Notes under the pieces: generated by a model
Seen by the model: only the letters and a program-made list of their open reading frames with translations
What the model was told of the DNA's origin: nothing
The model's database searches: none
Shown: in pieces, positions 20,719 through 49,857 of the stretch
Numbering within the stretch: position 1 is the stretch's first letter
Layout of the letters: every line of letters starts with the position of its first letter
Translations under genes and position numbers: made by a program
NCBI GenBank assembly: GCA_043745465.1
Contig: JAYTSV010000207.1
Location: forward strand, 16,983 to 80,982
Direction: 5' to 3'
DNA: 64,000 nt
Source of the DNA: Fimbriiglobus sp.
GTDB taxonomy: Bacteria; Planctomycetota; Planctomycetia; Gemmatales; Gemmataceae

Positions 20719-23376
20719 ATGCTCCGCGTCGTCCCCGCCCGCTCCGCCGCCCAGGCGAAGAGTTACTACAGCCACTCGGACTACTACACCGAGGACCAGG
20801 AGCTCGCGGGCGTGTGGCGCGGCCGGGCCGCCGACCGCCTCGGCCTCGCCGGCACCGTCGAGAAGCGCGACTTCGACGCCCTGTGCGACAACCGCCACCC
20901 GGCCACCGGAGAGCGGGTCACGGCGCGGGACCGCGCCGACCGCACCGTCGGTTACGATTTCAACTTCCACGCGCCGAAGTCGCTCTCGCTCCTGCACGCG
21001 CTGACCGGCGACGAGGCCGTACTCCGCGCCTTTCAGGACTCGGTCGATGGCGCCATGCGCTTGGTCGAGGCCGACATGGCGACCCGCGTCCGCAAGGGCA
21101 AGGTCTACGAGGACCGCGCGACGGGCGAGATGGCCTGGGCGAGGTTCGACCACCTGACCGCGCGGCCGGTCGGCGGGGTGCCGGACCCGCACCTGCACAG
21201 CCACTGCTTCGCGCCCAACATGACCTTCGACGCCGACGAGGGGCAGTGGAAGGCGGGGCAGTTCCGCCAACTCAAGCGCGACGCCCCGTACTACCAGGCC
21301 GCCTTCCACGCCTCGCTCGCCTCGCGGCTGACGGCCCTGGGCTACCCGGTCGGGAAGACCCCCGGCGGCTGGGAGGTGGCGGGGCTGGCCCGCTCGACGC
21401 TCGAGAAGTTCTCGCGGCGGACCGCCCGGATCGAGAAGCTCGCGGCCGAGAGGGGGGTCGCCGGCTCGCCCGAGGCCAAGGCCGCCCTGGGGGCGACGAC
21501 CCGCGAGGCGAAGGCCAAGAACCTGACCATGCGCGAGCTCCGACGGCACTGGGCCGACCGGCTCGACGCCGGCGAACGCGACGCCCTCGACGCCCTCGCG
21601 GCCCGGCCGGGGGGCGTGGGCACGCGGGCCGGGCTGGACGCCCCCGCGGCGCTCGGCTTCGCCTGCCGGCACCTGTTCGAGCGGGACTCGGTGGTGTGCG
21701 AGCGGCGGCTGGCCGCCGCGGCGCTCGACGCCGGCCTGGGGCGCTTCACCGCCGGGCAGGCCTTTGCGGCTATCGCCGAGTCGGGCGTGATCGTCCGCGA
21801 GGTGGGGGGCCGCCGGCTGGCCACGACCCGCGAAGTACTCGGCGAGGAGGCCCGCCAGGTCGCCTTCGCCCGCGGGGGCCGGGGCACCTGCGCGCCGCTG
21901 GGCCTCGGGCCGCACCAGTTCACGCGGGACTGGCTCAACGCCGGCCAGAAGGCGGCCGTCCGCCACGTCCTCGCGTCGCCCGACCGCGTCATGCTGGTCC
22001 GCGGCGCGGCCGGGACGGGCAAGACCTCGCTCATGCAGGAGGCCGCCGAGGCCATCGAGGAGCGCGGCAAGAAGGTGTTCGCCTTCGCGCCGTCGGCGGG
22101 TGCGAGCCGCGGCGTGCTGCGGTCGGAGGGTTTCGCCGGGGCCGACACGGTGGCCCGGCTGCTCGTCGACGTCAAACTTCAGGAGGAGGCGCGGGGGCAG
22201 GTGCTGTGGGTCGACGAGGCGGGACTCCTCGGCTCGAGGCAGACCGGCCGGCTGTTCGAGCTGGCGAAGGGTCTCGACTGCCGGGTGGTCCTGTCGGGCG
22301 ACCGCCGGCAGCACGGCGCGGTGGAGCGGGGGTCGGTCCTGCGGGTGCTGGAGTCGCAGGCGGGGCTGGTGGCCGCCGAGGTGCGTGAGGTGCAGCGGCA
22401 GACCGGGGCGTACAAGGCGGCGGTCGAGCGGCTCGCCGAGGGCCGGGCGGCCGAGGGGTTCGGCATGCTCGACGCGCTGGGCTGGGTGCGGGAGGCGGCC
22501 GACGCCGACCGCTACACGCTGCTGGCTGCGGACTACGCCGAAGCGACCGAGGCTGGCCGGTCGTGCCTGGTGGTGTCGCCCACGCACGCCGAGGGCTCCC
22601 TCGCCACGGCCGCCATCCGCGACGCCCTGCGGGCCGCCGGACGGCTCGACCGCGAGGAGCACACCGTCCCCCGGCTGACCCGGCTCGACCTGACCGAGGC
22701 GGAGCGCGGGGAGGCGGGGAGCTACCGCCCCGGCGACGTGCTCGAGTTCCACCAGAACGCCAAAGGGCACCGCATCGGCGAGCGGGTCCTCGTCAAAGAC
22801 AGTGAGACGCCGCCGGTGGAACACGCCGTGCGGTTCCAGGCCTTCCGGCCGGGCGAGTTGCGGCTCTCCGCCGGCGACCGGGTGCGGGTCACCAAGGGGG
22901 GCAGGACGACCGACGGCCACCGGCTGGAGACGGGGGCGGCGTTCGGCGTGGCGGGGTTCACGCCCGCTGGCGACGTGCGGCTCGACAACGGCTGGGTGGT
23001 GGCCAGGGACTTCGGGCACCTGGCGCACGGCTACGTGACGACCTCGCACGCCGCGCAGGGCAAGACCGTCGACCGGGTGCTGGTGGCCCAGTCGGCGGCG
23101 TCGCTGGGTGCCACGTCGCGCGAGCAGTTCTACGTGTCGGCGTCGCGGGGCCGCGAGCGGGTGACCGTCTACACCGACGACAAGGCGGCGCTGCGCGACG
23201 CGGTCACCCGCTCGGACGAGGGCATGGCGGCGACCGAGTTGGTGGCCGCCGGGGCCCGCCCGGACGCGCTGCGGCAGCGGCTGCGCCTCAACCGGGCGGC
23301 GGAGCGGCCCCGCGAAGAGTCCCGCGACGGGCGCGCCGCCGAGCGCGAGCGGAAGGAGGCGGGCCGTGGACGGTAG
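20719..23376 (+). CDS. MOBF (TrwC/TraI-like) relaxase with C-terminal RecD-like helicase
   Basis: N-terminal YY..YY tyrosines (KSYYSHSDYY), FHAPKS, HLTARP...DPHLHSHC HUH motif, helicase Walker A GAAGTGKT, VDEAG, HGYVTTSHAAQGKTVD. Confidence 0.95.
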   Translation: MLRVVPARSAAQAKSYYSHSDYYTEDQELAGVWRGRAADRLGLAGTVEKRDFDALCDNRHPATGERVTARDRADRTVGYDFNFHAPKSLSLLHALTGDEAVLRAFQDSVDGAMRLVEADMATRVRKGKVYEDRATGEMAWARFDHLTARPVGGVPDPHLHSHCFAPNMTFDADEGQWKAGQFRQLKRDAPYYQAAFHASLASRLTALGYPVGKTPGGWEVAGLARSTLEKFSRRTARIEKLAAERGVAGSPEAKAALGATTREAKAKNLTMRELRRHWADRLDAGERDALDALAARPGGVGTRAGLDAPAALGFACRHLFERDSVVCERRLAAAALDAGLGRFTAGQAFAAIAESGVIVREVGGRRLATTREVLGEEARQVAFARGGRGTCAPLGLGPHQFTRDWLNAGQKAAVRHVLASPDRVMLVRGAAGTGKTSLMQEAAEAIEERGKKVFAFAPSAGASRGVLRSEGFAGADTVARLLVDVKLQEEARGQVLWVDEAGLLGSRQTGRLFELAKGLDCRVVLSGDRRQHGAVERGSVLRVLESQAGLVAAEVREVQRQTGAYKAAVERLAEGRAAEGFGMLDALGWVREAADADRYTLLAADYAEATEAGRSCLVVSPTHAEGSLATAAIRDALRAAGRLDREEHTVPRLTRLDLTEAERGEAGSYRPGDVLEFHQNAKGHRIGERVLVKDSETPPVEHAVRFQAFRPGELRLSAGDRVRVTKGGRTTDGHRLETGAAFGVAGFTPAGDVRLDNGWVVARDFGHLAHGYVTTSHAAQGKTVDRVLVAQSAASLGATSREQFYVSASRGRERVTVYTDDKAALRDAVTRSDEGMAATELVAAGARPDALRQRLRLNRAAERPREESRDGRAAERERKEAGRGR

Positions 23377-25801: not shown

Positions 25802-25897
25802 GAGTACCCCATTCGTTCGCTGTTTCGCCACGACGGGTGCCACGGATCGGCGGGGCTGTCAAGCGCTCGCCACTGGCCCGCCAGGGGCCGCGGCGGC

Positions 25898-25933
25898 AAA
25901 GAAAACCCCGCCGACCTTTCGGTGGGCGGGGTT
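25898..25933 (-). terminator. Rho-independent terminator after the GP88-like gene
   Basis: Minus strand AACCCCGCC-CACCGAAAGGTC-GGCGGGGTT followed by TTCTTT. Confidence 0.7.
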
Positions 25934-25942
25934 CCAGTTCGG

Positions 25943-27090: not shown

Positions 27091-28581
27091 TTAGGCTGAA
27101 GCCTTATGCCGCCTGCGCGCCCCGCCGCCCGTGCTGTTGGTTCCGGGGGCGGTCAGGCTATCGAACGCGGCCCGCGTCAACACGAGGGTCTTCTGCTTCA
27201 GCACCGCATAGGCGCATAACTCCGCGGCCGGGAGCACCTTCACGCCGCTGAGGTTGCGGCTCGACTTGTACACGTTCATGTCGTGGCCGGCCGTGGCGAT
27301 CAGCGCCGTCGTGTCGAACAGCGTCACGTCTCTCTCGGTCATCGTCTCGACGTTGTCGGCATCGACGCCCTTGACCATCTTCTTGCCGGCCTTGATCGCC
27401 TTCAAGATCATGACCATCTGCTTGGTCGCGGGGGCCGCCATCGTGAGCGTATCGACGATGATGACCTGGCCGTCGACGAACTTGCTGAGGATCGCCTGGC
27501 GGGTCGCGGCCTTCACGGCCTGCTTGGGCAGGTGGTACTCGTAGTCGCGGGGCTTGGGGCCTTTGGCCGTGCCGCCGCCGCGCCGCTTGTTGGTCCGCAC
27601 CGTACCGGCGCGGGCGTTGCCCGTGCCCTTTTGGCGGAACAGCTTCTTCGTGCTGCCCGCAACCTCGCCGCGGCGGAGGGTCGAGGCGGTACCCGACCGC
27701 TGGTTCGCCAGGTACATCAGCACCGCCTCGTGCAGTAAGGCCTTGCTGATCTTGCCGCCGAAGGCTGCGGGGTTCATCTCGACCGAGCCGACCTTTTCTC
27801 CGTCGGTGTTAACAACCGCCACGCTGATCGGGGCCGCATACTCGGTGACGAGGGCGAGAGGGCGGGACAGCCGCTCGGCAAATTCTTCGTAACCCAGCTT
27901 CCCGACGAGGCCGATGAATTCGGCAGCCAAACCGCCCCGTCGGCTGTCGGCCAGGCAAGAAGCGAGGAGAGGCCAAAGGTCTTGCCGATGAACTGCGTCT
28001 TTCGCGAACCCGACGAGGAACAGCGTCACCGGGATGCGACGCGTTTTCAGCAGCTCCACCACACCGGGCAACTCTCTAACGGCGGCGGCCCCGTCCACCC
28101 GGAAGAGCAGTCCATGGGCTGCGGCGGCGTAGTTGTGGCCTCGGAGATCCCGATCGATCATGTGGCGTACGGCTCCTTCCCCCTGATGTGGCACCCAGTG
28201 CGTCGTCAGACAGAACAGGGCCTCTCGGTGAATATCGACGTGGGGGTCAGGCCGGCCCCTCAGTCCGGAATTCTGGGCGATCGATGAGACCAAGGCGGTG
28301 CATCCGGGTGCCGGGCAGCCGGTCAGTACGGTGAGGAGTCGGGCCACCGCGGCCCGGGACTCGCCGGTAACCGGGCGAGAGAAAAATCCTTTTAACAGTG
28401 CTGACGCACGGGTGCCGAACCCCGCCCGCGTCGCCTCGGGCGCGTCGTGAAGGAGTGAGAGGAAGTGAGTGAAGGGGTTGGGGTAGTCCTGGGGCAGGGT
28501 CACGCCTCGGACCGGACGGCCCGCGACAAGATCTCCCAGTCGGTCCTGGTAAACCCACAGCACGCTCTGGACGTTACTCAT
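27091..28581 (-). CDS. rplD: Fusion of an unknown ~250-aa helical domain to an essentially complete ribosomal protein uL4 (496 aa)
   Basis: Residues ~252-476 (nt 27828-27154) read ISVAVVNTDGEKVG...LLHEAVLMYLANQRSGT...RGEVAGSTKKLFRQKGTGNARAG...RRGGGTAKGPKPRDY...SRNLSGVKVL...VLKQKTLVLTRAAF, clearly uL4. Single uninterrupted frame from ATG 28581 with GGGGAG SD. Confidence 0.92.
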   Translation of the reverse strand: MSNVQSVLWVYQDRLGDLVAGRPVRGVTLPQDYPNPFTHFLSLLHDAPEATRAGFGTRASALLKGFFSRPVTGESRAAVARLLTVLTGCPAPGCTALVSSIAQNSGLRGRPDPHVDIHREALFCLTTHWVPHQGEGAVRHMIDRDLRGHNYAAAAHGLLFRVDGAAAVRELPGVVELLKTRRIPVTLFLVGFAKDAVHRQDLWPLLASCLADSRRGGLAAEFIGLVGKLGYEEFAERLSRPLALVTEYAAPISVAVVNTDGEKVGSVEMNPAAFGGKISKALLHEAVLMYLANQRSGTASTLRRGEVAGSTKKLFRQKGTGNARAGTVRTNKRRGGGTAKGPKPRDYEYHLPKQAVKAATRQAILSKFVDGQVIIVDTLTMAAPATKQMVMILKAIKAGKKMVKGVDADNVETMTERDVTLFDTTALIATAGHDMNVYKSSRNLSGVKVLPAAELCAYAVLKQKTLVLTRAAFDSLTAPGTNSTGGGARRRHKASA

Positions 28582-28597
28582 AGCTCTCCCCCGCGGG

Positions 28598-29434
28598 CTA
28601 CCGGATGACCTCGACGAACGTCACGTTGCGCTTTCCGAGTTCCTGTGTCACCACCTCCTCCGCGCCGCGGCAGGGTGCACTGTGCTGAGGGTCGGGCATC
28701 GGCTGCGTAAGGTCTTGCGTCCACCCGTGACTCGGAACCGGAGTCCCGCGCGTGTACGGCTCAGGAATGAAGTGCGGGTTGTCGAACGCGTCGTAGCCTG
28801 TGGGCACGAAAATTCCCGGGATCGGCTGTCCGGCTAATCGCAGGCGGATGACGGCCGTCGCGTCCAAGTCCCCGCCGATCCCCAAGAATCTGCGCAGGTC
28901 GGCCACGCTGGCCCGAGGGAAATCGACCACCCGCTCCTCTGACGCCCAGAACAGCCGCCTAAGAGTGTTGCGGAACACTGCCCGCTCGCAGAGAATTTCG
29001 TCGAAGGTGCCTGCGCCTAAGAGAGCCATGTCGTGGGCGAACTCTCGTGGCAGGCGGCTGTAGCGGCTTAACGTCGCCGGCTCCAGATACCGATTCTCTG
29101 GTGTGGTGAACGACGCCGCCGGCATGATGGTCGTCAGGGGTCCTATGAACGTGGCCGGAGGCCCCGCACAGACCAGGCAGGGCTTTTCGCCCGGCGAGCC
29201 GTTGATCGCCTGCAGTGCCTGTCGCTTCGCGTCTTCCAGCGAGGGCTGGGGAGGGAGTCGGGTGCCGAACACTTCCAGGTGTTCAGCCGCATGCGCGTCG
29301 TTGTGGTGCAGCAAGTCGTCCGCGTCGAAGTTGCCCGACACCGCTTGGTGCTCAGGTTGGCTACTGAGACGTTGCCACCACCCGGCCAACTTCGCGGCAG
29401 ACCGGCAGTTCACGACGCGATCCTGAAACGGCAT
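28598..29434 (-). CDS. Unknown 278-aa protein, co-operonic with the uL4 fusion; weak ART-like motif pattern
   Basis: AGGAG SD before ATG 29434; stop is 16 bp from the fusion start. C-terminal half RRLFWAS...LRRFLGI...FVPTGYDAFDNPHF...HGWTQDL...GAEEVV. Confidence 0.75.
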   Translation of the reverse strand: MPFQDRVVNCRSAAKLAGWWQRLSSQPEHQAVSGNFDADDLLHHNDAHAAEHLEVFGTRLPPQPSLEDAKRQALQAINGSPGEKPCLVCAGPPATFIGPLTTIMPAASFTTPENRYLEPATLSRYSRLPREFAHDMALLGAGTFDEILCERAVFRNTLRRLFWASEERVVDFPRASVADLRRFLGIGGDLDATAVIRLRLAGQPIPGIFVPTGYDAFDNPHFIPEPYTRGTPVPSHGWTQDLTQPMPDPQHSAPCRGAEEVVTQELGKRNVTFVEVIR

Positions 29435-29603: not shown

Positions 29604-30581
29604 TTAGCCCACTCGCCGGTAGCCCGCATGGTTCCTAGCCAAGGCTCGATCGATCTCGGCTTGGAGGTGGGAGTTCCTTGAGTCGCCGTACATGTAAAGG
29701 CGACGGAGCGCCGGCAACCGGGGTGACACCGCCACGGCGCGGATCGCGTCTGCCGTCAGCGTGTTGCCCTCCAGGACTAGCGTTTCGAGGGAAGTGAGGT
29801 GGGGGGAGGCGGCGATGGCGCAGGCCCCCGAGTCACCGATGGCGTTGTACCCCAGGTCGAGCCGGCGGACACGTGTCATGGCCGACGAGCCCACAAGGGC
29901 AATCGCCCCGGCGTCAGCGACCCGGTTGTGCATCAGGTCTAGGTACTCGAGCTGCCCGCCCTCGCCCGGTTCGAAGCAGGACGCCTCTGCGAGGGCGGTC
30001 GCGCCGGCCGGGCCGACCGAGTTGCCGCGCAACACCAGCCCCCGTACGGCCCCGACCCAGGGGCACCGCGCGGTTAGGGCGACGCACCCGGCGTCCCCGA
30101 CGCGGCTGTGACTGAAGTCCGCCCAGTCGATCTGACCGCTGCCGAGGCCGACCGCCTCCGTGAATTCCGCGTGGACGGTGAAGCGAGCGAAGAGGACCGC
30201 GCGGACAGTAGGATTCGTTCTGAGCAGGCAGCCGTCGAGAGAGGCTACGGTGGCGGGCTGGAGCGTGATCTTCCAGGGGAACCCGCGGTGGAGTGCGACT
30301 TCGAACCTGTCGAAGTCGGCGGCGGCCGGCCGGAAATGCGGCCCGTAATCGCCTAAGAGACCCCGCTCGCGGGCTACCAGAGACGCCCGCTCCTCCTCGC
30401 CTGTCACCGACGCCAACTCGCACTGGACGCGGATCAGTTCGGCCCAGACATCCCGGCCGTGCTCGTCCAGCCAGTCGGCGAACACGAGGCGCGGCAAGTC
30501 GTCGTCGGGGGCTTGTGCCACCGCCGCAATCAAAGCCCGCTCGTCGTCACCGGCGGGGCCGTCCTTGGCCAACAGTTCCAT
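29604..30581 (-). CDS. TIGR02996-domain leucine-rich-repeat protein
   Basis: ALIAAVAQAPDDDLPRLVFADWLDEHG...AELIRVQCELA, then RI-like LRRs (LVLRGNSVG, LDLMHNRVA, LDLGYNAIG, LVLEGNTLT). Confidence 0.9.
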   Translation of the reverse strand: MELLAKDGPAGDDERALIAAVAQAPDDDLPRLVFADWLDEHGRDVWAELIRVQCELASVTGEEERASLVARERGLLGDYGPHFRPAAADFDRFEVALHRGFPWKITLQPATVASLDGCLLRTNPTVRAVLFARFTVHAEFTEAVGLGSGQIDWADFSHSRVGDAGCVALTARCPWVGAVRGLVLRGNSVGPAGATALAEASCFEPGEGGQLEYLDLMHNRVADAGAIALVGSSAMTRVRRLDLGYNAIGDSGACAIAASPHLTSLETLVLEGNTLTADAIRAVAVSPRLPALRRLYMYGDSRNSHLQAEIDRALARNHAGYRRVG

Positions 30582-31880: not shown

Positions 31881-32846
31881 TCAACGGGTCATATCGTAAC
31901 CCGCTGCCCGAACGAACCAGCTCGGGTGCTTTTGGAACATCGCGAACGTGCCTTTGTAGCCGCCGAACTCTAGGCTCATGTCGGGAGGAAAGCCCGCTCG
32001 GGTCAGCTGTAACATCCCTTGCCAGGTAACCCCCCACGGCTCGCCGCCGCGGAAATCTTGCAGCACCAGTTGGCTCAGGCTCCCGAGTCTTTGTGAGTTC
32101 ACAATAGCCTCGACCCCTTCATCGCTGATCCAGTTTGAGGATACGTCGAGATGCGTTAACTGTTCAGCCATTGGCGAATCGACTAATACGCGTACACCTC
32201 CCGCCGTGATATGATTGTGGCGTAGGTTAAGGTAGCGTAATGATGGAAGACATGGAGTGTACGCGAGCAGTGCCACCCCGTCGTCATCGATGCCGCACCC
32301 GTGAAGTCCGAGTTCCGCCAGACCGTTCAAGTGATCCGACGCTGTTAGGGCACGCAACCCTTCCAGGGACAAAAAGCAGCGCGCCAAATCGAGTTGGTCC
32401 AACCGCTGCGATGAAGGACAGGAGGCTACCACTTCCGCCGCGGGGGAGTCACCACGCGCGTGGCATTGCACCCTCAGCCTATGAACCGTTGGCGGGCAGG
32501 CTTCGAGAAGCTGCTCAAGTTTGTCCAGCCGATCATCGCGTATCCACACTCCCTCCAGAATCCCGCGGTAGTATTCGACATTGTCCGCGCCCGCAGCGTA
32601 GAGAGGCCTTGCCCACTCGCGGGCGTGGGCTTTGACCATGGCCCCGGCCAGTACAGCCAGTTTCGTGGCCCCGTCAGGGTCAGTCGGCTGAACATTATAA
32701 GCTTCGCACTGGATGCGAATCAGCGAGGCTTCGTCGTCGTGCCCGTGCTCTTCGAGCCAGTCGGCATACACTAGCCGCACAAGATCGTCCGCGGGATTAG
32801 CGCGGATGACTTTCAGGAAACAGGCTTGGTCCGTGTCGAGAATCAT
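31881..32846 (-). CDS. Second TIGR02996-domain LRR protein
   Basis: FLKVIRANPADDLVRLVYADWLEEHG...LIRIQCE, then LRRs (LDLARCFLS, LGLHGCGID, LNLRHNHIT, LDVSSNWIS). Confidence 0.9.
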   Translation of the reverse strand: MILDTDQACFLKVIRANPADDLVRLVYADWLEEHGHDDEASLIRIQCEAYNVQPTDPDGATKLAVLAGAMVKAHAREWARPLYAAGADNVEYYRGILEGVWIRDDRLDKLEQLLEACPPTVHRLRVQCHARGDSPAAEVVASCPSSQRLDQLDLARCFLSLEGLRALTASDHLNGLAELGLHGCGIDDDGVALLAYTPCLPSLRYLNLRHNHITAGGVRVLVDSPMAEQLTHLDVSSNWISDEGVEAIVNSQRLGSLSQLVLQDFRGGEPWGVTWQGMLQLTRAGFPPDMSLEFGGYKGTFAMFQKHPSWFVRAAGYDMTR

Positions 32847-32923: not shown

Positions 32924-33010
32924 GCCACCTTGATTTGCCAGATTTGCTGCCTTTGTGCTGGACCCAGTATCCTCACTGGGCGACAATTTGCCGGTCACCG
33001 AGGGCCCACG

Positions 33011-36000
33011 ATGAGCGTAGTCACTCCGACTGACTTGAATACGGTCAAGTCAGTCAAGGTCATGGATGCGGTCCGCACGGCTTGGTACGCTGGCCGCCCG
33101 ATCGTGCCGATCGTAGGCGCGGGTCTGTCCGCCGACTCCGGGTTTCCGGTACTCTCGTCCGTGACGCGGTACTTCGGGAAGTTCAAGTCTTACGTCTCGT
33201 CCCGCGCGTACCTCTTCCCGACTGACAAGCGCGATCCGCTCGAGGCGCTGGCGTTGCAGTACGACGACGCGCCGTGGCGCTTCGTCGAGGACTTCGGCTG
33301 GCCCGACCGGTTCCAGTTGAACCAAGACCTGCTGACGTACCTCAACGGAACGGGCGACAGGGCCACGCCGAGTAAGGTCGTCGAGCAGTCTGTCCGGGAT
33401 GGGCTGGATGCCGTCCTCCGGCACATCAACCCGCATGGGTGGGAGCAGTTCCAACGTCTTAAAACCGCTGTTGTGGGTGGAAAGACTTCCAGCGGCGAAT
33501 CGGTCCATGGAGCCCTTGACCCGAGGTACGCTCTTGACCGAACGGCGCGGTTGATCGACGGGATGGATTTGCGCCCCGTCGGGCACCGCCCATTAAATCC
33601 CGTGGACCTGGGCGGTCAGGCGCTCCCCCGCGTTCTTGGTGCCCTCCGCAATCACGTAGAGGAGCGGTTTGAACGGTTCTGGTCGAACAGTGTCGCTTTC
33701 GACCTGGTCGGCGACTGGAAGAAACTAATCCAGTACTTCACCCGATCCCAGGGGGACTACGCCGACGCCCTCTTCGCCACGTTCGGGGCCAGCCGCGAGC
33801 CCTCGCCCGGCCACCGCTACCTGGCCTTCCTCGCCAAGCTCCTGGGCTGCCGCACGATCTTCACGTTCAACTTCGACACCCTGATCGAGCAGGCTCTGGA
33901 GGCCGAGGGCGTGAGGCCCGAGGTGTTCGCCATGGAGGCCGGGGCCGGGCTGCCCCACCACACGCTAATCCGCGACGCAGTTGCCGTGATCAAGCTGCAC
34001 GGCGGGAACCACTCGCTGCTCCTGGACGAGCGGCTCGACCGACCGCTCGGGGACGAGTACATGAATCGCTTCGACCGCATCGTCCGCGAGAACCCGCTCC
34101 TGCTGGTCGTGGGGTGCAGCGGGAACGATTACCGGCTCCGCGACCTCGTCCTGCACGTCCTGAAGCGAGCCCAGGCCGGCCGGGCGCGGTCCGGTCGGCC
34201 GGCGGCCGGGCCGGACGTCGTGTGGCTCCACTACGAGCGCGACGCGCCGGCCTTTCTCGACACCTTCGTCGGCGACTCCACGGTGCGACAAGCCGCGGTG
34301 TACGCCCAGGGGACGAACAGCCCAGGTGCGGCACTCCTGCACCTGCATTCGTGGCTAACACGCCGCTGCCCGGCGGGCCGGAGCCCTTACCTCACGCACG
34401 TGCAGCGTCCGATCCCGCTCCGCGGGCCGTTGGCCGACAAGGCGTTCGAGACCCTCGGGGACAGCAACTTCTACCTCTGCTCGACCCTCGCCGAGGCCCC
34501 GGTCCCGACGGCGTCGGCGTCGCAGACCGTACTCAGTCTGGCCCTCGACTGGTCGCGTAACGGCTACCAGACGATCTGGGTCGACCTGGAGTCCGTCCAC
34601 ACCCTGGCGGGGGTGGTCGGCGCGATCGTGGACCAGTGCCGTCAACTCGACGCGACCCTCCCCCCGTCCGTCCTGCCGCTCGACGACCTGGGGACCAACG
34701 CCGAGTCCGTCATCGGGCGCGCGGTCGAACTGGTGGTGCGGGCGCTCCGGCGGACCAGGTACCTCGTCGTGCTGGACGGCCTGGAGACCTACCCCTGGCC
34801 GGCCACCACGCACCACGGCCTCACGCACCTATACCACCACCGCGGCGTGGTGAGACTGACGAACCTGTGCAAGTTCTTGATAGATCTCGTCGGCAAGGAG
34901 TTAGGGGAGTCGCGAGTCTGTTTGGCTGTCGATGGATCGAAGTCCCGACACGTGAACCCTACGCTCGACCAAGAATTGGGCCTCCGTGAGAAGGTGAAGA
35001 AGTTACAGCTTAGCGCAGTATGCGTCGCCCCCGAGCGTCTGGAGCAGAAGGGTCAGGATCAGGTTCGGCTTCCCTCATTGATCAACTGCTTGAAGACTCC
35101 TGAGGCGCAAGACGAATCGCCGCTCGTGGCCGTGACAGCGGACGGTGGGACGACACTGGCGGCCGCGGGTGTCGGACCCCTGGTCTTGTTCTACCTCGCT
35201 TGTTTTCGGAGGACCCGGACCCTCGTGTCGCTCGACACGGTGCTACGGCCGATCCTCGGCAGCCGGGGGGCGGTCGATGCCGCTTTGGCCGCCCTGCCCA
35301 TTGAGAGCACGCCGTGGCTCGGGATGACTGTGCTGGAGGGGGGGAGTCACTGGTTCGACCGGAGGGTAAGGAACTACCTCTACGAAAACTGCACGAACTT
35401 CACTTCGACTGGCCATTTAGAGCGGTGTTTTTCAAAAGACCCGCAGACTTGTAACCTGCGGGCGGCGGCGGCCCAACTGCTCCTGACTGCGGTCGTGCAT
35501 CAGCATATCGCGAGGGTGTACCACTCGACGCTGTTCGTGCAGTCCCAAGACGCCGTCTCTTTCATGGAGTACACCTACCACCGGTTGTCGAGCATCCGGA
35601 GCCTCGCCAAATTGATAGGCCTGATCCGACACGTCAAATCCCTCACTCCCGAACACTATCGGGCGGTCGTCGAAGGCGTACGGCTTTGCGGCGAAGCCTT
35701 CCGGCAGGCGTCCCCAGGCTCGATTGACGCCTTCGACGCGACACAATTCGAGGTCGATGACTCCAACCCGCCGCAAGGGCCGCTGACGAAGGTCGTTCGC
35801 AGACTGTTCGACTGGACGCCCGGCATAAAAACCCCCAAATTCGCCGCCGAACAGTTTGCAAGTGATAACTCCTGGGCGGCAGTAATCAAACTAATCGAGC
35901 GGGAACTCCAAGAACGTCACCGACGCGAACTTCAAAGCCTCCACCGGGCGTGGGTTCGCTGCGAGGGCGTGGTGCGAGCCCAGGTGCCCGCCGAGCAACT

Positions 36001-37837
36001 CTTGAACTGGTGCGAAATACTCCTTGAGGACGATCTCGAACACCGGGTTAACAGCGTCGTGATTGGCTACCACGAGCAGAAGGAAAGCGGGGGGCGTGGC
36101 ACTCTTTACACCCCGCGGTTTGCGCCCCCACCGACCGGCGACCATGTCGTCAAGGATCCGCCAGATCCAGTCCCTGTCGTCAACGACACGGCGGAGCCGG
36201 TTCTTAATGACATAAAGACCTACTTCAAAGATTTTCAGGCTAAGACATATATCGAGCGGTCGGACTTCTCGGCCTGCATCCGGCTGCGCCATGAGCAGCT
36301 GACCAAGGATAAAGCAATCCTGGTCATTAATTTGCCTGACCCCCTTAAGCCAGAAGAGATGTTCAAAGAGAAGCTTTTCGAGCCCGTTCTTGAGAAATGT
36401 ACGATTGCTCACTGCCATTACCTGCTAGACATCGTGGCGTGCCTGATCAGACGGGCTCAGGAGCTAACCACTGCAGACGATGAACTCAATAAAAAGTTGG
36501 AATCATCCCCTCTGAAATTGCTTAAGGATATTCAGGTTCAACTTAAACACTTGGGCGGGCAGGTGTCGGCGGCGACTCCGACCGGCCGCGAGCCGACTGC
36601 GGCGGACCACGAACCCGTTGGCGTGCTAGCAGAGCCGGGCGGTGACATGCACGAGGCTGGGCTACGCCTCTTGTACTTAGAGGCCGAGTGCGACTTGCAG
36701 CGGTCATCGGTGTTCTCGCACGACGGTTTCGTCCCGCCCGTTGCGTCCACGGGGAGCGGCGGAGTGGCCCAGCCACCAACAAAAACCCTTGAGGTCGCGC
36801 GCGGAGCGGTCAGAGCCGGGTTGGAGCAGATCCGCGATCAGAACCCGCGGGCCGGCGGCGTCCACCGGAGCGTCGTCGTCGAGCCGACCGCGGACGGGTC
36901 GCTGTATTTCCAGTACCGCTCACTCTTTCACACCTTAAGAGGGCGGCTCAAGTGGATGGACCGGGCCGGCGATGACCCAGAAGAGGCTTTCGAGGCGGCG
37001 TTCCGCCAATTCGACTTGGCCCGTGGGGGGCTTGGCGAAGGCAACCCGCTGATCGCGGCACTCGCGGAACTGTACGCGGTCGAGGCCTCCTTGGCTCGGG
37101 CCCGACACATCTTGAGCCAAGACTGCAAGACACCCCACGGTTCACTACCGTTGGACGCGGCCGTTGCCAAGTTCGAGACGGCGCGGGTCGCGCTGCAAAG
37201 GGCCCGCCACCACTTGCAGAGGGGTCGGCGGAACGTCATCTGGTGGAAGCTCTACTTCTCGCTGACCTCGCAGTACCACGCGGACAGGTTGCTCCTCGGC
37301 TACGCACGCCTCTACGACCGCGTCGCCGCTTCGGTCCGTGACCCTCAGCCACACGACGACAATCCGGTCGGCCGCGAGGCCGTGACGCAGTACGTGACCC
37401 GTCTGCGTCGCGGCTACCAGAGCGTCCGGAACACTCTCGACTTGTACCTGCCCGGGCCGGTGGGCCGACCCACTCCCCGCTGGCCGTGCCGTGCGTGGCT
37501 GCAGATGACGCTGGCGGCGTACGCTGTCGGCCGCCTAGGCTTCGAACGCCACCCCGAGAGCCCCTTTTGTCTAAAGAATAGAAAAGAGGGAGATATTCAG
37601 GATATTCGGGAGGCCCAGGCTAGCGTGATCCATTATTTGGGAGGCTTGAACGAAGGTGCCCTGCTTCTAATGGAGCCGAACATCAAACCCTACTTTGAAA
37701 AGTTTGCGAATACCATCAAAGAAGAAGAGCCGGCCGCACTTTGTCCCCACCTGGTCGGTGACACCTCCTTGTCCAAGTGGGCGTCACTACTGCGGTTGGT
37801 GTCCGGCTCAACGTTTACTCCAGAGCAAACCCAGTAG
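33011..37837 (+). CDS. Large SIR2-domain defence protein with degenerate STAND-like module and helical C-terminus (~1608 aa)
   Basis: SIR2 motifs IVGAGLS (GAGLS at 33116-33130), TFNFD (33863), KLHG (33992), VVGCSGND. Walker-B-like YLVVLDGLE (VVLDG at 34766) but no recognisable Walker A. TPR-like helices at the C-terminus. Confidence 0.8.
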   Translation: MSVVTPTDLNTVKSVKVMDAVRTAWYAGRPIVPIVGAGLSADSGFPVLSSVTRYFGKFKSYVSSRAYLFPTDKRDPLEALALQYDDAPWRFVEDFGWPDRFQLNQDLLTYLNGTGDRATPSKVVEQSVRDGLDAVLRHINPHGWEQFQRLKTAVVGGKTSSGESVHGALDPRYALDRTARLIDGMDLRPVGHRPLNPVDLGGQALPRVLGALRNHVEERFERFWSNSVAFDLVGDWKKLIQYFTRSQGDYADALFATFGASREPSPGHRYLAFLAKLLGCRTIFTFNFDTLIEQALEAEGVRPEVFAMEAGAGLPHHTLIRDAVAVIKLHGGNHSLLLDERLDRPLGDEYMNRFDRIVRENPLLLVVGCSGNDYRLRDLVLHVLKRAQAGRARSGRPAAGPDVVWLHYERDAPAFLDTFVGDSTVRQAAVYAQGTNSPGAALLHLHSWLTRRCPAGRSPYLTHVQRPIPLRGPLADKAFETLGDSNFYLCSTLAEAPVPTASASQTVLSLALDWSRNGYQTIWVDLESVHTLAGVVGAIVDQCRQLDATLPPSVLPLDDLGTNAESVIGRAVELVVRALRRTRYLVVLDGLETYPWPATTHHGLTHLYHHRGVVRLTNLCKFLIDLVGKELGESRVCLAVDGSKSRHVNPTLDQELGLREKVKKLQLSAVCVAPERLEQKGQDQVRLPSLINCLKTPEAQDESPLVAVTADGGTTLAAAGVGPLVLFYLACFRRTRTLVSLDTVLRPILGSRGAVDAALAALPIESTPWLGMTVLEGGSHWFDRRVRNYLYENCTNFTSTGHLERCFSKDPQTCNLRAAAAQLLLTAVVHQHIARVYHSTLFVQSQDAVSFMEYTYHRLSSIRSLAKLIGLIRHVKSLTPEHYRAVVEGVRLCGEAFRQASPGSIDAFDATQFEVDDSNPPQGPLTKVVRRLFDWTPGIKTPKFAAEQFASDNSWAAVIKLIERELQERHRRELQSLHRAWVRCEGVVRAQVPAEQLLNWCEILLEDDLEHRVNSVVIGYHEQKESGGRGTLYTPRFAPPPTGDHVVKDPPDPVPVVNDTAEPVLNDIKTYFKDFQAKTYIERSDFSACIRLRHEQLTKDKAILVINLPDPLKPEEMFKEKLFEPVLEKCTIAHCHYLLDIVACLIRRAQELTTADDELNKKLESSPLKLLKDIQVQLKHLGGQVSAATPTGREPTAADHEPVGVLAEPGGDMHEAGLRLLYLEAECDLQRSSVFSHDGFVPPVASTGSGGVAQPPTKTLEVARGAVRAGLEQIRDQNPRAGGVHRSVVVEPTADGSLYFQYRSLFHTLRGRLKWMDRAGDDPEEAFEAAFRQFDLARGGLGEGNPLIAALAELYAVEASLARARHILSQDCKTPHGSLPLDAAVAKFETARVALQRARHHLQRGRRNVIWWKLYFSLTSQYHADRLLLGYARLYDRVAASVRDPQPHDDNPVGREAVTQYVTRLRRGYQSVRNTLDLYLPGPVGRPTPRWPCRAWLQMTLAAYAVGRLGFERHPESPFCLKNRKEGDIQDIREAQASVIHYLGGLNEGALLLMEPNIKPYFEKFANTIKEEEPAALCPHLVGDTSLSKWASLLRLVSGSTFTPEQTQ

Positions 37838-39385: not shown

Positions 39386-41020
39386 CTACCGAATGCCGCC
39401 GGACTCGCGGACCCACTGGTCGAGCGTCTTGCGGACTTTTTCGGCCCGCGGGGAGCCCGCGGCCTCGTAACACGCGATCGCCCGTTTTCCGAGGTGGATC
39501 GCGTGGACGCGGTGACCCATCGAATGTAGGATCGACGCGAAACTGGCGGTCGCGTTCCCCTCCTCAATGCCGTCCCCGACCTCCCAGGCTATGACGAGCT
39601 GCCGGTCGTGACACGCTAGCGCCGCCGGGAGGTCCCCGAGCTTCCTAAGCGTCAGGCCGAGGTTGCCCGAAGTTCGCCCCTCGCCGCAGCGGTCGCCGGC
39701 CTCCCTCGCGATGGCGAGGTGTTGCTCGAACATGGATTTGGCCCTGGCGTGGTCGCCGAGTGCCGAGTAGGCGTTGCCGAGGTTGCCCAACGCCGTGCCT
39801 TCCCCGATCCGGTCCCCGATCCCGCGGGCGACGGCGAGATCCTGCTCGAAATGGTCGATCGCTTTCGGGTATTCGCCGAGTCCGGCGAAGGCGCACCCGA
39901 GGTTCCCGAGCGCTGAGCTCTCCGCCCGCCGGTCGCGTGTCTGGCGGGCGATCGCGAGGTGCCGCTCGTGGAGGCTGACGGCTTTCCGGGCGTCGCCGAG
40001 GGCCAGCCACGACACCCCGAGGTTGCCGAGCGCGGCCCCCTCCCCCCTCCTGTCGCCCGTCTGGCGGGCGAGGGCGAGGTGATGCTCGTAGCACTCCACG
40101 GCTTTGCGGTGGTCCGCCACGAGGGCGTACGCCCCACCGAGGTTCCCGAACGCCGCCCCCTCCAAGACGCGGTCGCCGATCTCCACCGCGACGGCGAGGT
40201 GCCGCTCGAAGCACTCCGCTGCCTTGACCCCGTCGCCGAGGGCCGCGTACCCGCGGCCCAGGTCGCTTAGGGCGGCCCCCTCGCCGAGGCGGTTCCCGGT
40301 CTCTCGGGATATCGTCAGGTGCTGTACGTAGTACCCCATGGCCCGCCGGGGGTCGCCGAGGGCGGCGTACGCGCCGCCGATGCCGCTGAGCGCCGCCCCC
40401 TCCGCGGCGCGGTCCCCCGACTCCCGTGCGACCGCGAGGCGTCGCTCGAACGCGTGGAGCGACTTCCCGGCGTCCCCCATGGCGGCGTACGCCCGCCCCG
40501 TGGTTCCCAGAGCGTTCCCCTCCCCGACTCGGTCGCCGAGTTCGCGGGCGATGTCGAGGGCATGCGCGAGCAGCCCCAGCGACCTCTGCGTCTCGCCCGT
40601 CAGGATCAGGACGCTGGCGAGGTTGTTGGTCGCGTACCCCTCCAGGCGGCGGTCGCCGAGCCGGACGCACGCCGCGATGCCGGCTTCGAGCCAGCCGACG
40701 AGGGCCGCGGCGTTGAGTCGCGCGGCCACCACCGGCGACGCCGCGAGGGCGAACAGCCTGCACATCTCGGCCGCGAAGGTGTCGCTCGGGTCGGCCCGCA
40801 GAGCCTCGGCCGCCCAGCCCTGGCGGTACCGGATGCCGGCTGACTCCCGATCGAACGCCGCCAGCCCGTCCGCGACGCCCCCCCCGCCCCCGAGGTAGAG
40901 CGCCCCCGCCCCGGCCAACTTGTCCGCGTAGTGACGCGCGGCCCGCACGTCCCTCAGCCGCAGGCGGGCAGCGCGGTCGATGCGGCGGGGGTGGCGGCCC
41001 CCCCAAGCGAAGTCGTTCAC
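39386..41020 (-). CDS. TPR-repeat protein; C-terminal half of a split NLR-like gene (544 aa from GTG 41020)
   Basis: About nine 40-aa repeats LGNLG.AY..LGD..KA....E.HLAIAR..GDR..EG, preceded by RAARHY...LYLGG...GLAAFD. GTG overlaps the upstream TGA. Confidence 0.8.
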   Translation of the reverse strand: MNDFAWGGRHPRRIDRAARLRLRDVRAARHYADKLAGAGALYLGGGGGVADGLAAFDRESAGIRYRQGWAAEALRADPSDTFAAEMCRLFALAASPVVAARLNAAALVGWLEAGIAACVRLGDRRLEGYATNNLASVLILTGETQRSLGLLAHALDIARELGDRVGEGNALGTTGRAYAAMGDAGKSLHAFERRLAVARESGDRAAEGAALSGIGGAYAALGDPRRAMGYYVQHLTISRETGNRLGEGAALSDLGRGYAALGDGVKAAECFERHLAVAVEIGDRVLEGAAFGNLGGAYALVADHRKAVECYEHHLALARQTGDRRGEGAALGNLGVSWLALGDARKAVSLHERHLAIARQTRDRRAESSALGNLGCAFAGLGEYPKAIDHFEQDLAVARGIGDRIGEGTALGNLGNAYSALGDHARAKSMFEQHLAIAREAGDRCGEGRTSGNLGLTLRKLGDLPAALACHDRQLVIAWEVGDGIEEGNATASFASILHSMGHRVHAIHLGKRAIACYEAAGSPRAEKVRKTLDQWVRESGGIR

Positions 41021-42321
41021 GTGAAGAGCCCCGCGGCGATCGGCTTCATCAGGTCGTGGAGCCGGTAGCGGGACGACGACTCGTCGAAGAGGACCAGGCT
41101 CCTGGCCACCAGCTCGGACAGTCCCTCGCGGACGTCGTGGTCGTCGCTCCCGAGCCCCCAGATCTCGGCCGCGTAGTCGGCGGCGAAGTCCGACGGCGCG
41201 TCGGCGAGGTCGGACCACCGCGTGGCGAGGTCCTCGTCGTCCCGCATGAGCTCCGCGGAACTCAGCTTCAGGACCGCCTCCACGTCGCGCCCCTGGCCCC
41301 GCAGCCACCGTAGCCGCTCCCGCTCAAGGGCGAGGATGTACCGCCCGACGGTCCACCCGGCCCGACCGCGGACGAAGTCGCCCGCCACCCGCAGCGCCAG
41401 AGGCAGGTGGCCGCACAACGCCGCCACCGTGTGCAACTCCTCGTCGGTCCCCTTCGCCCCGGCGGCCCCGCGCAAGAGCACGAGGGACTCTTCCGGGGGC
41501 AGCACGTCCACCCGCACGGAGGCGACGCCGTCCAGCAGCAGGGCGTTCCGGCTGGTGACGATGAAGCCGTTGGACTCCCCGGCGATCAGGCTCTTGACCT
41601 GGGCCTCCCCGGCCGCGTTGTCGAGCACGACCAGGGCCCGCCGGCCCGACATGGCGCTGCGGTAGAGGGGCAGCAGCGCGTCCTCGGCCTCGGGCAGGTC
41701 GGCCGCGTCGGGGTGGAAGTCGCGGATGAACCGCGTCATCGCCTCCGCGGGCGTGACGGGCCGCTCGCTCACGCCCCGGAGGTCGAGGAAGAGTTGGGCG
41801 TCGGGGAAGAGGTCCTTGACGGCGTGGGCGACCCGCACGGCCAGCGTCGTCTTGCCAACCCCGCCCATGCCGCGCAGCGCCGACAGGCCGACCCGCCCCC
41901 CGGCCCCCCGCAGCCGCCCCACGATCTCCGCGAACTCCGCCCCGCGCCCGGTGAAGTCACCGAGGTCGGCAGGCAGTTGGTGCAACCGGCTGAACGCCGG
42001 GGCCGGGGCGTCCGCCCGACCCGCGGGGCCGGCCCTCTGGGGTCGCCGACGCGACTCGCCCGCGGGCCGCACGACGCGACGGCGGAACTCGGGCGTCAGC
42101 AGCTCGTCGAGGTCGACGGCCAGGGCCTGGGCGACCTTGCGGACGTTCTCGACATCCGCCTGCCTCACGCCCGCGGCCTCCCACTTCTGGACCGTACTCC
42201 TGCCGACGGCGGCCTTTTCGGCCAGCGAGTCCGGGGTCAGCCCCCGCATCCTCCGCAACCTTTGCACGGCGTGGCCGTCGATTTCGACCTTGCCGACCCA
42301 GGCGTCGAAGGGGCTGCTCAT
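41017..42321 (-). CDS. XRE-HTH + NB-ARC (STAND) protein; N-terminal half of the split NLR-like gene
   Basis: HTH LRRMRGLTPDSLAEKAAVGRSTVQKWE; QLPAD..DFTGR, Walker A GMGGVGKT, Walker B VVLDNA, IVTSR, CGHLPLAL, RYRLHDL. Confidence 0.9.
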   Translation of the reverse strand: MSSPFDAWVGKVEIDGHAVQRLRRMRGLTPDSLAEKAAVGRSTVQKWEAAGVRQADVENVRKVAQALAVDLDELLTPEFRRRVVRPAGESRRRPQRAGPAGRADAPAPAFSRLHQLPADLGDFTGRGAEFAEIVGRLRGAGGRVGLSALRGMGGVGKTTLAVRVAHAVKDLFPDAQLFLDLRGVSERPVTPAEAMTRFIRDFHPDAADLPEAEDALLPLYRSAMSGRRALVVLDNAAGEAQVKSLIAGESNGFIVTSRNALLLDGVASVRVDVLPPEESLVLLRGAAGAKGTDEELHTVAALCGHLPLALRVAGDFVRGRAGWTVGRYILALERERLRWLRGQGRDVEAVLKLSSAELMRDDEDLATRWSDLADAPSDFAADYAAEIWGLGSDDHDVREGLSELVARSLVLFDESSSRYRLHDLMKPIAAGLFT

Positions 42322-42450
42322 GGCGATCCGGTGGCGATGGTGTGGCGGCCGGGTGGCTAAAACGATGGGGCGAATGGACACGCACGCGCCAGGTACAGTC
42401 TAACGTCCCGGCTCCGATTGTCCACCCGGCACCACGCCCAAGGAGTTCCC

Positions 42451-44456: not shown

Positions 44457-45284
44457 ATGACGACTCTCTGCGTCCCGATCGACCGACTGGTCCCCGACCC
44501 GACCCAGCCGCGACGGTCCGTCCCGCCCGACGACCTGGCCCGCCTGGCCGCCAGCCTCCGCGCCCGCGGCCAACTCCAACCGCTCCGCGTGAAGCCCGCC
44601 GACGCCGCCGGCCGCCACGCCGTCGTCAGCGGCCACCGCCGCCTCGCCGCCCTCACGATGAATGGGGCGGCCCACGCCGACTGCGTGGTCGTCGACGCGC
44701 CCCAGGACGAGGCCGAAACCCTGGCCGAGCAGCTCGCCGAAAACCTCCTCCGCGAGGACCTGTCGCCCGTCGAGGAGGCCGAGGGCTACCGCCGCTACCT
44801 GGCGTTGACCGGCCTCCCCGCCGCCCGCGCCGCCGAGGCGCTCCACGTCCCCCCGCCGCGGCTCAGCCGCCGCCTCGCGCTGCTCGACCTGTCGGCCGAG
44901 GTCCGCGACAAGGTCCACGCCGGCGACCTGGCCCCCGACACCGCCTACCACGTCGCCCGCCTGCCCGCGGGGGTCGAGCGCGACCGGCTCTTGGCCGAGG
45001 CCGCCGCCGGAACCCTGAGCCGCGACGCCGCAGCCTCGGCCGCCAAGGCCGCGCGCAAGCCGCAGTCCACCCCGGCCGAATCGCCCGCGCCGGGCCGCGT
45101 CACCTGCAAGTTGCCGGGCGGCCGGTCGCTGAGTGTCACAGCCTCGTCGGTCGGCCTGGCGACACTGATCGATGCGCTCGAGGAAGTGCTGAAGGAGGCC
45201 CGCAAGGCGCGGCAGCAGGGCCTCGACGTGACGACCCTCTCCAAGGTCCTGCGCGACCGCGCCGCGAACGGGGGCGCCGCGTGA
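44457..45284 (+). CDS. parB: ParB/RepB/Spo0J-family protein
   Basis: PDPTQPRR...LAASL...GQLQPL.V, VVSGHRRLAA, ENLLREDLSPVEEAEGY, HTH. Confidence 0.92.
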   Translation: MTTLCVPIDRLVPDPTQPRRSVPPDDLARLAASLRARGQLQPLRVKPADAAGRHAVVSGHRRLAALTMNGAAHADCVVVDAPQDEAETLAEQLAENLLREDLSPVEEAEGYRRYLALTGLPAARAAEALHVPPPRLSRRLALLDLSAEVRDKVHAGDLAPDTAYHVARLPAGVERDRLLAEAAAGTLSRDAAASAAKAARKPQSTPAESPAPGRVTCKLPGGRSLSVTASSVGLATLIDALEEVLKEARKARQQGLDVTTLSKVLRDRAANGGAA

Positions 45285-48242: not shown

Positions 48243-48515
48243 ATGGAAGCGTTCACTGAGCGGCTCGGCCGCATCGAGGCGATGCTCCTGGAACTCGTCG
48301 GCCAGGCCCCCGGCCGGGAGTGGCTCACCCCCGCGGAGGCCGGCCGCGCCCTGGGCAAGGCCGAGTTTACCGTCCGCGAGTGGTGCCGCCACGGCCGGCT
48401 TCGCGCCCAGAAGCGGGCCAGCGGCCGCGGGCCGCACCCGGCCTGGGTCGTCAGCCGCCAGGAGCTGGACCGCTACCGGCGGGAGGGCCTTCTGCCCCTC
48501 CGAACACGCCCCTGA
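48243..48515 (+). CDS. xis: Excisionase-like helix-turn-helix protein
   Basis: EWLTPAEAGRALGKAEFTVREWCRHGRLRA.K MerR/HTH_17-like; convergent with the integrase; GGGAGG SD. Confidence 0.8.
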   Translation: MEAFTERLGRIEAMLLELVGQAPGREWLTPAEAGRALGKAEFTVREWCRHGRLRAQKRASGRGPHPAWVVSRQELDRYRREGLLPLRTRP

Positions 48516-49668: not shown

Positions 49669-49786
49669 TGCTGTGCCCTCAAGGGGAGCAACGCCAGTCT
49701 AACGCGAGCGAAGAGATGTTGCCAGCTTGTTGCCGAGATCCGAAGCAAGAAGTCGCAAATCCTTGATCTGCAATGACTTACGAAAG

Positions 49787-49857
49787 TTACCCGACTAGGA
49801 TTCGAACCTAGACAAACAGTGCCAAAAACTGTTGTGCTACCGTTACACTATCGGGTA
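49787..49857 (-). tRNA. trnQ: tRNA-Gln (anticodon UUG), CCA not encoded
   Basis: Minus strand TACCCGA...TAGTGTAACGGTAGCA...ACAGT-TTTTGGC-ACTGT...CTAGGTTCGAATCCTAG...TCGGGTA-A; all cloverleaf stems pair. Confidence 0.96.

Follow-up and report, generated by a model that had tools for sequence, protein, structure and literature searches.

The locus described here raises the question of why a core ribosomal protein should be encoded on a mobile element as one half of a larger protein. It lies in a 64,000-nucleotide stretch of DNA from Fimbriiglobus sp. (assembly GCA_043745465.1, contig JAYTSV010000207.1, positions 16,983 to 80,982; hereafter the window), where an open reading frame (ORF) at exactly 27091..28581 on the minus strand begins with ATG and encodes 496 amino acids. 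The product consists of an N-terminal α-solenoid, here called PartB, followed by ribosomal protein uL4 and a short tail, and is preceded by the gene of a second protein, PartA. The analysis shows that the fusion is genuine and the PartA-PartB module conserved, that the C-terminus of PartB is swapped between members, that ribosomal proteins recur at that position and that the residues of the uL4 fold have been retained. From comparison with related loci, the ribosomal protein may be the input domain, a bait or a sensor, of an undescribed conflict module, an explanation that is put forward tentatively and at a little under an even chance.

The first-pass annotation of this DNA, made from the letters alone, had described one open frame with a good Shine-Dalgarno (SD) sequence, leaving the strand unstated, and had divided the product into an unrelated helical domain and a near-complete uL4 with its extended loop. 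Each part of this description stood. The SD-like GGGGGAGAG lies a few bases 5′ of the fusion ATG, with the stop codon of the preceding gene 14 nt away, and the exact 496-residue product was found in a public protein collection on an NCBI contig of 103,785 bp. Residues 1-245 are all-helical in an AlphaFold2 (AF2) model, with 14 helices forming an α-solenoid (predicted local distance difference test, pLDDT, 89.4; predicted template modelling score, pTM, 0.86). The Pfam Ribosomal_L4 profile matched residues 267-477 with an E-value of 1.7e-54 over positions 1-188 of 190, and the TIGR03953 rplD_bact equivalog gave 184.3 bits against a cutoff of 130.1. The uL4 half could be aligned to solved bacterial uL4 over residues 3-201, contains an insertion of ~18 residues typical of Gemmataceae and carries the extended loop KKLFRQKGTGNARAG; the last 17 residues of the fusion, TNSTGGGARRRHKASA, are not uL4. 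The reading of the first 245 codons as a spurious high-GC extension of a normal rplD was rejected: the start region of canonical rplD is missing, the solenoid has relatives in other proteins and is modelled with confidence, and shuffling the same DNA keeps the frame open in only 0.27% of cases.

The only internal starts in the fusion, V254 (GTG) and M269 (ATG), both lack an SD sequence. The ATG results from a valine- or isoleucine-to-methionine change at residue 269 (window 27775-27777), and uL4 made from it would miss its first strand, so that a separate uL4 product is unlikely. The GC content at third codon positions (GC3) is ~0.73 across the solenoid and steps up to ~0.91-0.95 for uL4, and in this respect the uL4 part is like the backbone of the surrounding integrative conjugative element (ICE) and the chromosomal genes and unlike the low-GC3 cargo. 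No promoter-like sites, terminator-like sites or repeats were found flanking the rplD fragment. Window annotation agreed with the first-pass statement that rplC and rplW neighbours are missing and that the flanks are ICE and defence genes; rpsJ is likewise absent from the vicinity, and the neighbours of the fusion are PartA and GP88.

The uL4 half was traced to a housekeeping gene. The fusion clusters at ≥90% identity with uL4 proteins of 246-247 residues, which in Fimbriiglobus metagenome-assembled genomes (MAGs) are encoded in the order rpsJ-rplD-rplW-rplB-rpsS, and it is the one fused protein among 17 cluster members. Window positions 27836..27143 match nt 41-734 of the 741-nt canonical Fimbriiglobus rplD with 89.2% DNA identity over 694 nt without a gap, and the encoded proteins are 91% identical. 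The homology spans ~27848 to 27143, so that one breakpoint falls near codon 10-11 and the other at codon 245, ≤10 codons and 1-2 codons from the respective ends of the coding sequence; beyond them no similarity to rplW or to the rpsJ-rplD and rplD-rplW spacers was found. As homology is confined to codons ~11-245, the copy is the interior of the coding sequence alone, without its own start or stop, and it is joined in frame straight after the last solenoid helix. The donor was probably a related Fimbriiglobus. All 80 of the closest uL4 genes (species representatives) lie in a uS10-uL4-uL23-uL2 context, and the fusion is unique among them.

A separate canonical rplD had been expected in this genome. 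For related genomes it was found in the S10 operon; for the host itself, canonical rplD-rplW contigs occur in the source metagenomes at a depth similar to that of the fusion locus, which is consistent with a separate copy and does not prove it. The S10 operon of these Fimbriiglobus genomes (L001:9402-11149; also L003-L008) reads rpsJ-rplD-rplW with a ~260-nt spacer and has no rplC between rpsJ and rplD, so uL3 must be encoded elsewhere. One relative carries a DDE transposase and a DUF4096 gene directly 5′ of rpsJ (L001:7896-9241); in this lineage mobile DNA does come right up to the S10 operon. The Fimbriiglobus MAG JAYTBD01 (L009, L040) contains two different complete uS10-uL4-uL23-uL2 operons on separate contigs, which is likely a strain mixture or bin contamination rather than paralogy.

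A chimera at ~27830 had been named as a possible undoing of the fusion, and an assembler could have linked a piece of conserved rplD to a plasmid gene. The contig comes from a metagenome assembly, a MAG from sediment, and the middle of the uL4 part (~27280-27625) fragments into short unitigs at 2.5-5x depth because its words are common to more abundant rplD copies; both points speak for such an artefact. It would need two false junctions, and long contigs span both. Four runs (X1-X4) contain the locus. In X3 and X4 a contig of 22,190 bp covers upstream genes, the solenoid and the adjoining 74 codons of uL4, and a second contig of 2,901 bp extends from the last 63 uL4 codons into downstream DNA, with the same pattern in X1 and X2. 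Unitigs of X1 and X3 at ≥99% identity together tile every base of the middle, the pieces specific to this paralogue have a depth of ~40 compared with 37.6 and 39.8 for the flanks, and the copy differs from canonical rplD by 11% throughout. An independent Logan contig, L098, carries SIR2-LRR-210aa-LRR-PartA and then the fusion through 78 uL4 codons to the contig end. No alternative joints and no indel or broken variants were present in the contigs and unitigs of the four samples. With both junctions spanned by independent Logan contigs in four runs the gene is not a chimera; the artefact explanation is largely refuted and has become extremely improbable.

The solenoid proved to be a distinct family. 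Seven remote homologues of 245-770 residues, all aligning end to end over the solenoid, were recovered when 1.84 billion representative proteins were searched exhaustively with phmmer, while a word-indexed search found nothing with the N-terminal domain alone and P0018 only with its alignment. The PartB family is represented by alignments A2 and A3, and a metagenome scan with the PartA alignment added the loci L095 and L096. The window protein has the PartB motifs D-x-H-R, Y-x-x-A-A and L-P and the invariant residues L83, P111, H118, R119, A167 and P172. The modelling and Foldseek comparison proposed in the first-pass annotation gave a confident solenoid with generic HEAT/ARM/TPR-like neighbours, all at E > 0.1, and no specific structural match in PDB or BFVD. 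PartA, called in public records in its 278-residue form, is ~260-290 residues long across loci and has invariant WW, GPP, FW and VPTGxDxF motifs. It is encoded directly 5′ of PartB on the same strand in the window, in L087, L090/L096, L092 and L095 and on the P0020 contig; among loci with enough flanking sequence only L088 lacks PartA before PartB. Searches of Pfam, PADLOC, NCBIfam and PDB sequences returned no family match for PartA or PartB, and the two are new protein families forming a rare, undescribed two-gene module.

A parallel to the window cassette is L087, a related conjugative element that carries TIGR02996-LRR, PartA and PartB genes next to its relaxase, the first of them encoding a protein 34% identical to the leucine-rich repeat (LRR) protein of the window; there PartB is free-standing. 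What follows the last solenoid helix differs between members: uL4 in the window, uL13 in L095, uS9 in L088, a receiver domain (REC) in P0020, an unknown domain of ~500 residues in P0022 and nothing in P0016 and P0021. The C-terminal position of PartB is thus a swappable module. In L092, PartA and PartB are followed, with overlapping stop and start codons, by a 1078-residue protein without a family match (L092:2723-5959), which may supply this form of the module with a third component or an effector.

The question of whether the N-terminal domain occurs on other host proteins was answered by this family, in which three of the roughly seven informative PartB loci are joined to three different near-complete core ribosomal proteins. 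In L095, PartA is followed by a 401-residue PartB-uL13 protein in which PartB matches the A3 family profile with an E-value of 2e-52 and uL13 is complete (Pfam 6.4e-43; TIGR01066 rplM equivalog 177 bits, cutoff 93). An alternative in which PartB simply abuts a native rplM-rpsI operon was rejected, since no rpsI lies downstream. In L088, the gene 5′ of a free PartB encodes a 1131-residue protein with a TIR domain (2-114), an NTPase of the STAND class (signal transduction ATPases with numerous domains), a PartB-like solenoid and, behind a linker rich in proline, uS9. The solenoid (residues 633-874) is matched to PartB by hhalign with a probability of 98.6 and E 7.8e-16, and uS9 is recognised by Pfam at 4.9e-30. 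This uS9 copy is divergent, has its natural QFSKR end and retains the conserved C-terminal tail that contacts rRNA and the P site. Relatives of the L088 protein share its TIR-NTPase half only and otherwise end in TPR arrays, and the solenoid-uS9 unit therefore occupies the sensor arm. Two genes downstream of this gene and its free PartB lies a 430-residue RsgA_GTPase (L088:10065-11357), a member of the family of 30S maturation GTPases, which may be a coincidence or a link to the 30S subunit.

The uL13 and uS9 fusions come from bacteria unrelated to Fimbriiglobus, and the genomes with ribosomal fusions range from 54% to 68% GC. No compositional discontinuity was seen in L088 or L095, so those two fusions are older, and three independent fusions of one rare domain to ribosomal proteins make pure accident unlikely. 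Neither PartA nor PartB was found in an IMG/VR scan, by tblastn of PLSDB or by tblastn of phages, where the rplD matches were ordinary operon copies in misfiled records.

The substitutions in the uL4 copy were examined against eight canonical genes, giving ~52 synonymous and 25.5 nonsynonymous differences, rates of synonymous (dS) and nonsynonymous (dN) substitution of 0.37-0.42 and 0.051, and a dN/dS of 0.12-0.14. The canonical lineages differ among themselves by 0-5 nonsynonymous changes (dS 0.18-0.25, dN 0-0.010, dN/dS 0-0.04). The ratio for the copy is thus well removed from the value near 1 that the first-pass annotation had considered fatal to its reading, and the copy is also not under the strong purifying selection of a housekeeping gene. 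It has accumulated 77 substitutions in 694 nt, yet contains no indel and no stop, and its nonsynonymous fraction is 0.33 where random changes would give 0.74, so the copy has not been neutral overall. Only two of the 19 core replacements, A296S and N456C, fall in columns that are ≥95% conserved among 80 Gemmataceae uL4 proteins, although such columns make up 94 of the 225 (42%); this avoidance has a binomial probability of 0.0035, which rises to 0.045 when the count is restricted to the ~13 "excess" changes. The K328V replacement of the loop region is matched by an isoleucine in Bacillus. In simulations ~28 neutral substitutions left the frame open in about half of the runs, and as a short recent neutral phase could thus have been survived, the evidence for selection is suggestive rather than decisive. 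The copy appears to be under relaxed but persisting constraint, and for the earlier suggestion that its motifs are kept for binding rRNA or a partner, ratio and column avoidance are suggestive.

The explanation favoured here, that the ribosomal protein is an input domain, would begin with the capture of the rplD coding interior of a related Fimbriiglobus at the variable C-terminal position of PartB. The uL4 moiety would then report a ligand that binds uL4, either an invader factor that targets the ribosomal protein, in which case uL4 would act as bait or integrated decoy, or rRNA that is free, unoccupied or damaged, or intermediates of ribosome assembly. Through the solenoid the state of this input would reach PartA and the LRR protein as downstream or partner components. 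The solenoid and ribosomal protein are read as one input unit because effector, switch and sensor follow each other in the usual STAND order in L088, and by analogy with that protein the input to the window cassette would come through PartB-uL4. A sensor position of uS9 in a TIR-STAND protein favours the decoy and sensing models (b and c in the first-pass annotation) over ribosome tethering (a), and the kept uL4 loop and uS9 tail are compatible with sensing of rRNA or assembly. Also in favour of an input role are the precision of the capture, the constraint on the uL4 copy and the defence-like SIR2, STAND and NB-ARC-TPR cargo on the ICE. We infer the sensor role itself, its ligand, its output and a function in defence from these comparisons. 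A wider proposal, that there is a class of bacterial immune or conflict modules which use their own integrated uL4, uL13 and uS9 as baits or sensors presented by a solenoid to PartA or to a TIR-STAND switch, is possible and rather doubtful; such modules would parallel the integrated decoys of plant immune receptors, and they would guard the ribosome against invader factors or report failed ribosome or rRNA integrity.

Several observations weigh against an input role in a conflict module. The fusion, PartA and the LRR protein contain no STAND NTPase or TIR domain, the P-loop NTPase being confined to the L088 relative, and no recognisable effector was detected in the window cassette. PADLOC-DB v2 gave no matches for the fusion, PartA, the LRR protein, P0023 or P0022. 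The predicted structure of PartA is of low confidence (pLDDT 38) and the protein has no obvious catalytic residues, while L090 lies in a plain chromosomal context without defence neighbours. Every ribosomal fusion is a metagenomic singleton, the 80 closest species have no further uL4 outside the operon and no RNA runs containing the locus were found. Amino acid replacements in the copy are ~3-6x those of the housekeeping gene at comparable dS, and this faster change, together with GC3 that has not ameliorated, would also fit a recent capture followed by drift. The kept rRNA-binding tails would fit docking to the ribosome as well as they fit a bait.

This last point leads to a different view of the same proteins, in which the fused uL4, and likewise uL13 and uS9, replaces the canonical protein in some ribosomes or pre-ribosomes and anchors the solenoid, with PartA or the TIR-STAND protein, on the ribosome surface to act on or monitor translation. 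All three ribosomal proteins are near-complete and not fragments: uL4 has its extended loop and nearly all conserved columns intact, uL13 is full length, and the divergent uS9 keeps a tail that in ribosomes reaches the P site. By Rosetta-stone logic PartB would then work with the ribosome. Such anchoring leaves unexplained those members in which this position is taken by a receiver or an unknown domain or is empty, and an N-terminal load of 245 residues with a foreign tail of 17 might hinder assembly. STAND proteins need to oligomerise, which is hard to square with a 1131-residue TIR-STAND protein held inside the 30S subunit. We regard tethering as unlikely. A reading without any function for uL4 is that an rplD fragment reached the 3′ end of PartB by illegitimate recombination, in frame by luck, and has been drifting in a cassette that does not need it. 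In its favour are the uniqueness of the uL4 fusion within its cluster and among the 80 related species, the sharp GC3 discontinuity, the ~25 amino acid-changing differences where canonical lineages show 0-5, the simulations in which the frame often survives and the insertion alongside it, relative to L087, of a ~4.4-kb methylase-DUF6166-GP88 block. Against it, the same rare domain is joined to uL13 and uS9 elsewhere, the breakpoints lie within 10 and 1-2 codons of the coding sequence ends with no operon flanks, and the junction coincides with the domain boundary at which other members stop or carry another domain. The replacements moreover avoid conserved columns, the 694 nt are free of indels and no broken variants occur in the four samples, and an accident of this kind is considered quite improbable.

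The ribosomal protein could instead be the effector, masked by the solenoid in a chaperone-like manner until a trigger exposes or releases it and repression of its own operon or action on RNase E stops ribosome synthesis, causing growth arrest or plasmid addiction. In E. coli the S10 operon is repressed by free uL4, which also modulates RNase E, and uL13 is the repressor of rplM-rpsI. To our knowledge uS9 is not an operon repressor, and the L088 protein, with its ribosomal protein in the sensor position, already possesses an effector in its TIR domain. The S10 operon of Gemmataceae, where rplC is missing between rpsJ and rplD, may not be under uL4 control, and no protease or release mechanism is evident. 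The lack of another recognisable effector in the window cassette would suit this explanation, as would the existence in eukaryotes of a dedicated α-solenoid chaperone of uL4, Acl4 (PMC4598080); little credence is given to it overall. An input domain, bait or sensor, remains the explanation preferred here.

The setting of the cassette was determined from the annotation of the window, and the coordinates of the features are collected in the table below. The first-pass description of the fusion as cargo of a mobile element was confirmed by an ICE at tRNA-Gln with integrase, relaxase, coupling protein, RepA_C, ParA, ParB and resolvase, within which the cassette lies. The left end of the ICE and an att repeat of tRNA-Gln were not found within the window. 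Genes for a DNA methylase, DUF6166 and GP88 (23826-26596, minus strand) separate the fusion gene from a small relaxase-associated ORF (23366-23791). They are missing from L087, and relative to that element the rplD fragment is therefore at one edge of an insertion. The other STAND genes of the window are loci separate from the fusion cassette. Of these, the overlapping NB-ARC and TPR ORFs may be a single STAND-TPR gene with a frameshift or sequencing error. A second LRR gene is divergently paired with the SIR2_2 gene, and small LRR proteins may be recurrent companions of the cargo systems on this ICE.

Table. Positions of the fusion gene, its parts, its cassette and other annotated features, numbered from the first letter of the window.
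Feature	Position	Strand	Basis or remark
Fusion gene (PartB solenoid, uL4 and 17-residue tail)	27091..28581	-	ORF; Pfam and NCBIfam uL4 matches
SD-like GGGGGAGAG, inside the short PartA-PartB spacer	28584..28592	-	Read straight from the sequence
PartB α-solenoid, N-terminal, residues 1-245	27847..28581	-	AF2 model; homologues; end-to-end alignment with standalone members of ~250 residues
rplD-derived segment, canonical codons ~11-245, complete uL4 domain	27143..27846	-	DNA identity, mapped breakpoints
C-terminal tail, 17 codons and stop, non-homologous	27091..27142	-	rplD homology stops at codon 245; unlike rplD-rplW spacer or rplW
PartA, 278 residues, upstream partner gene	28598..29434	-	Homologous to PartA of L087, L090, L092 and L095
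TIGR02996 and LRR protein, first cassette gene	29604..30581	-	Pfam LRR_6; TIGR02996 2.2e-18
Second TIGR02996-type LRR gene, divergently paired with SIR2_2 gene	31881..32846	-	
SIR2_2-domain protein, 1635 residues, defence-like	32930..37837	+	Pfam SIR2_2; PADLOC SIR2/ThsA-type matches
STAND protein (AAA_22/NPHP3_N), 1984 residues	6636..12590	+	First ~120 residues match PADLOC endonuclease/PDDEXK-type effector models
TPR-rich ORF	39386..41308	-	Partner of HTH-NB-ARC ORF
HTH-NB-ARC ORF	41017..42381	-	Overlaps TPR-rich ORF by ~290 nt in a different frame
TrwC relaxase / TraI-type helicase	20719..23376	+	Pfam TrwC 6.9e-67, AAA_30
Type IV coupling protein, TraG/TraD-like	45281..46783	+	Pfam TraG-D_C
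Tyrosine integrase at ICE end	48451..49668	-	Pfam Phage_integrase 4.2e-25
tRNA-Gln, likely integration site and right ICE boundary	49786..49857	-	ARAGORN, Rfam; housekeeping genes such as MetH to the right

Whole core ribosomal proteins fused to other domains are very unusual in bacteria, and one rare domain joined independently to three of them, in one case within a TIR-STAND sensor arm and in another on a conjugative element beside defence genes, suggests a link between mobile-element or immune modules and the ribosome that has not been recognised. If the bait or sensor reading is true, these proteins would give bacteria a first analogue of immune receptors with integrated decoys and would show which ribosomal proteins are the targets of invaders; if they are anchors, ribosome-resident surveillance modules would have been revealed. 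Searches of Pfam, NCBIfam, PADLOC, PDB and the literature turned up no described system with this architecture, in agreement with the first-pass annotation, which knew of none.

When compared with housekeeping uL4 (rplD, TIGR03953/PF00573), the fusion shares the full fold and the tunnel loop and scores above the equivalog cutoff, while it differs in lying outside the S10 operon on an ICE, in lacking its own start and stop, in carrying a solenoid of 245 residues and a tail of 17, and in its 3-6x faster amino acid substitution. Plant immune receptors of the nucleotide-binding LRR type (NLR) with integrated decoys, and STAND receptors of the Avs type, resemble L088, which likewise has an effector (TIR), a STAND NTPase and a sensor arm, here holding a host-derived uS9. 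The window cassette itself differs from them in having no NTPase or TIR, and the bait role there is only predicted. A bacterial STAND protein that recruits a host translation factor is known, as Avs7 recruits EF-Tu (PMC13581612), while literature searches gave no bacterial STAND protein into which a ribosomal protein is integrated.

Eukaryotes have a dedicated chaperone for uL18 and uL5, Syo1. Both Syo1 and the uL4 chaperone Acl4 pair, as PartB does, an α-solenoid with a ribosomal protein that bears a long basic extension. There is no sequence similarity or specific similarity of fold to PartB, and the pairing described here is covalent, bacterial, borne on a mobile element and accompanied by a conserved partner gene. 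Standalone ribosomal proteins are encoded by viruses. Insertions of L12/ClpS and S1-like OB domains in NTP-dependent conflict systems were described by Kaur et al. 2020 (PMC7159879). Those cases are small multimerisation or RNA-binding modules or free proteins, whereas at the loci compared here the whole core proteins uL4, uL13 and uS9 are each carried on one rare domain.

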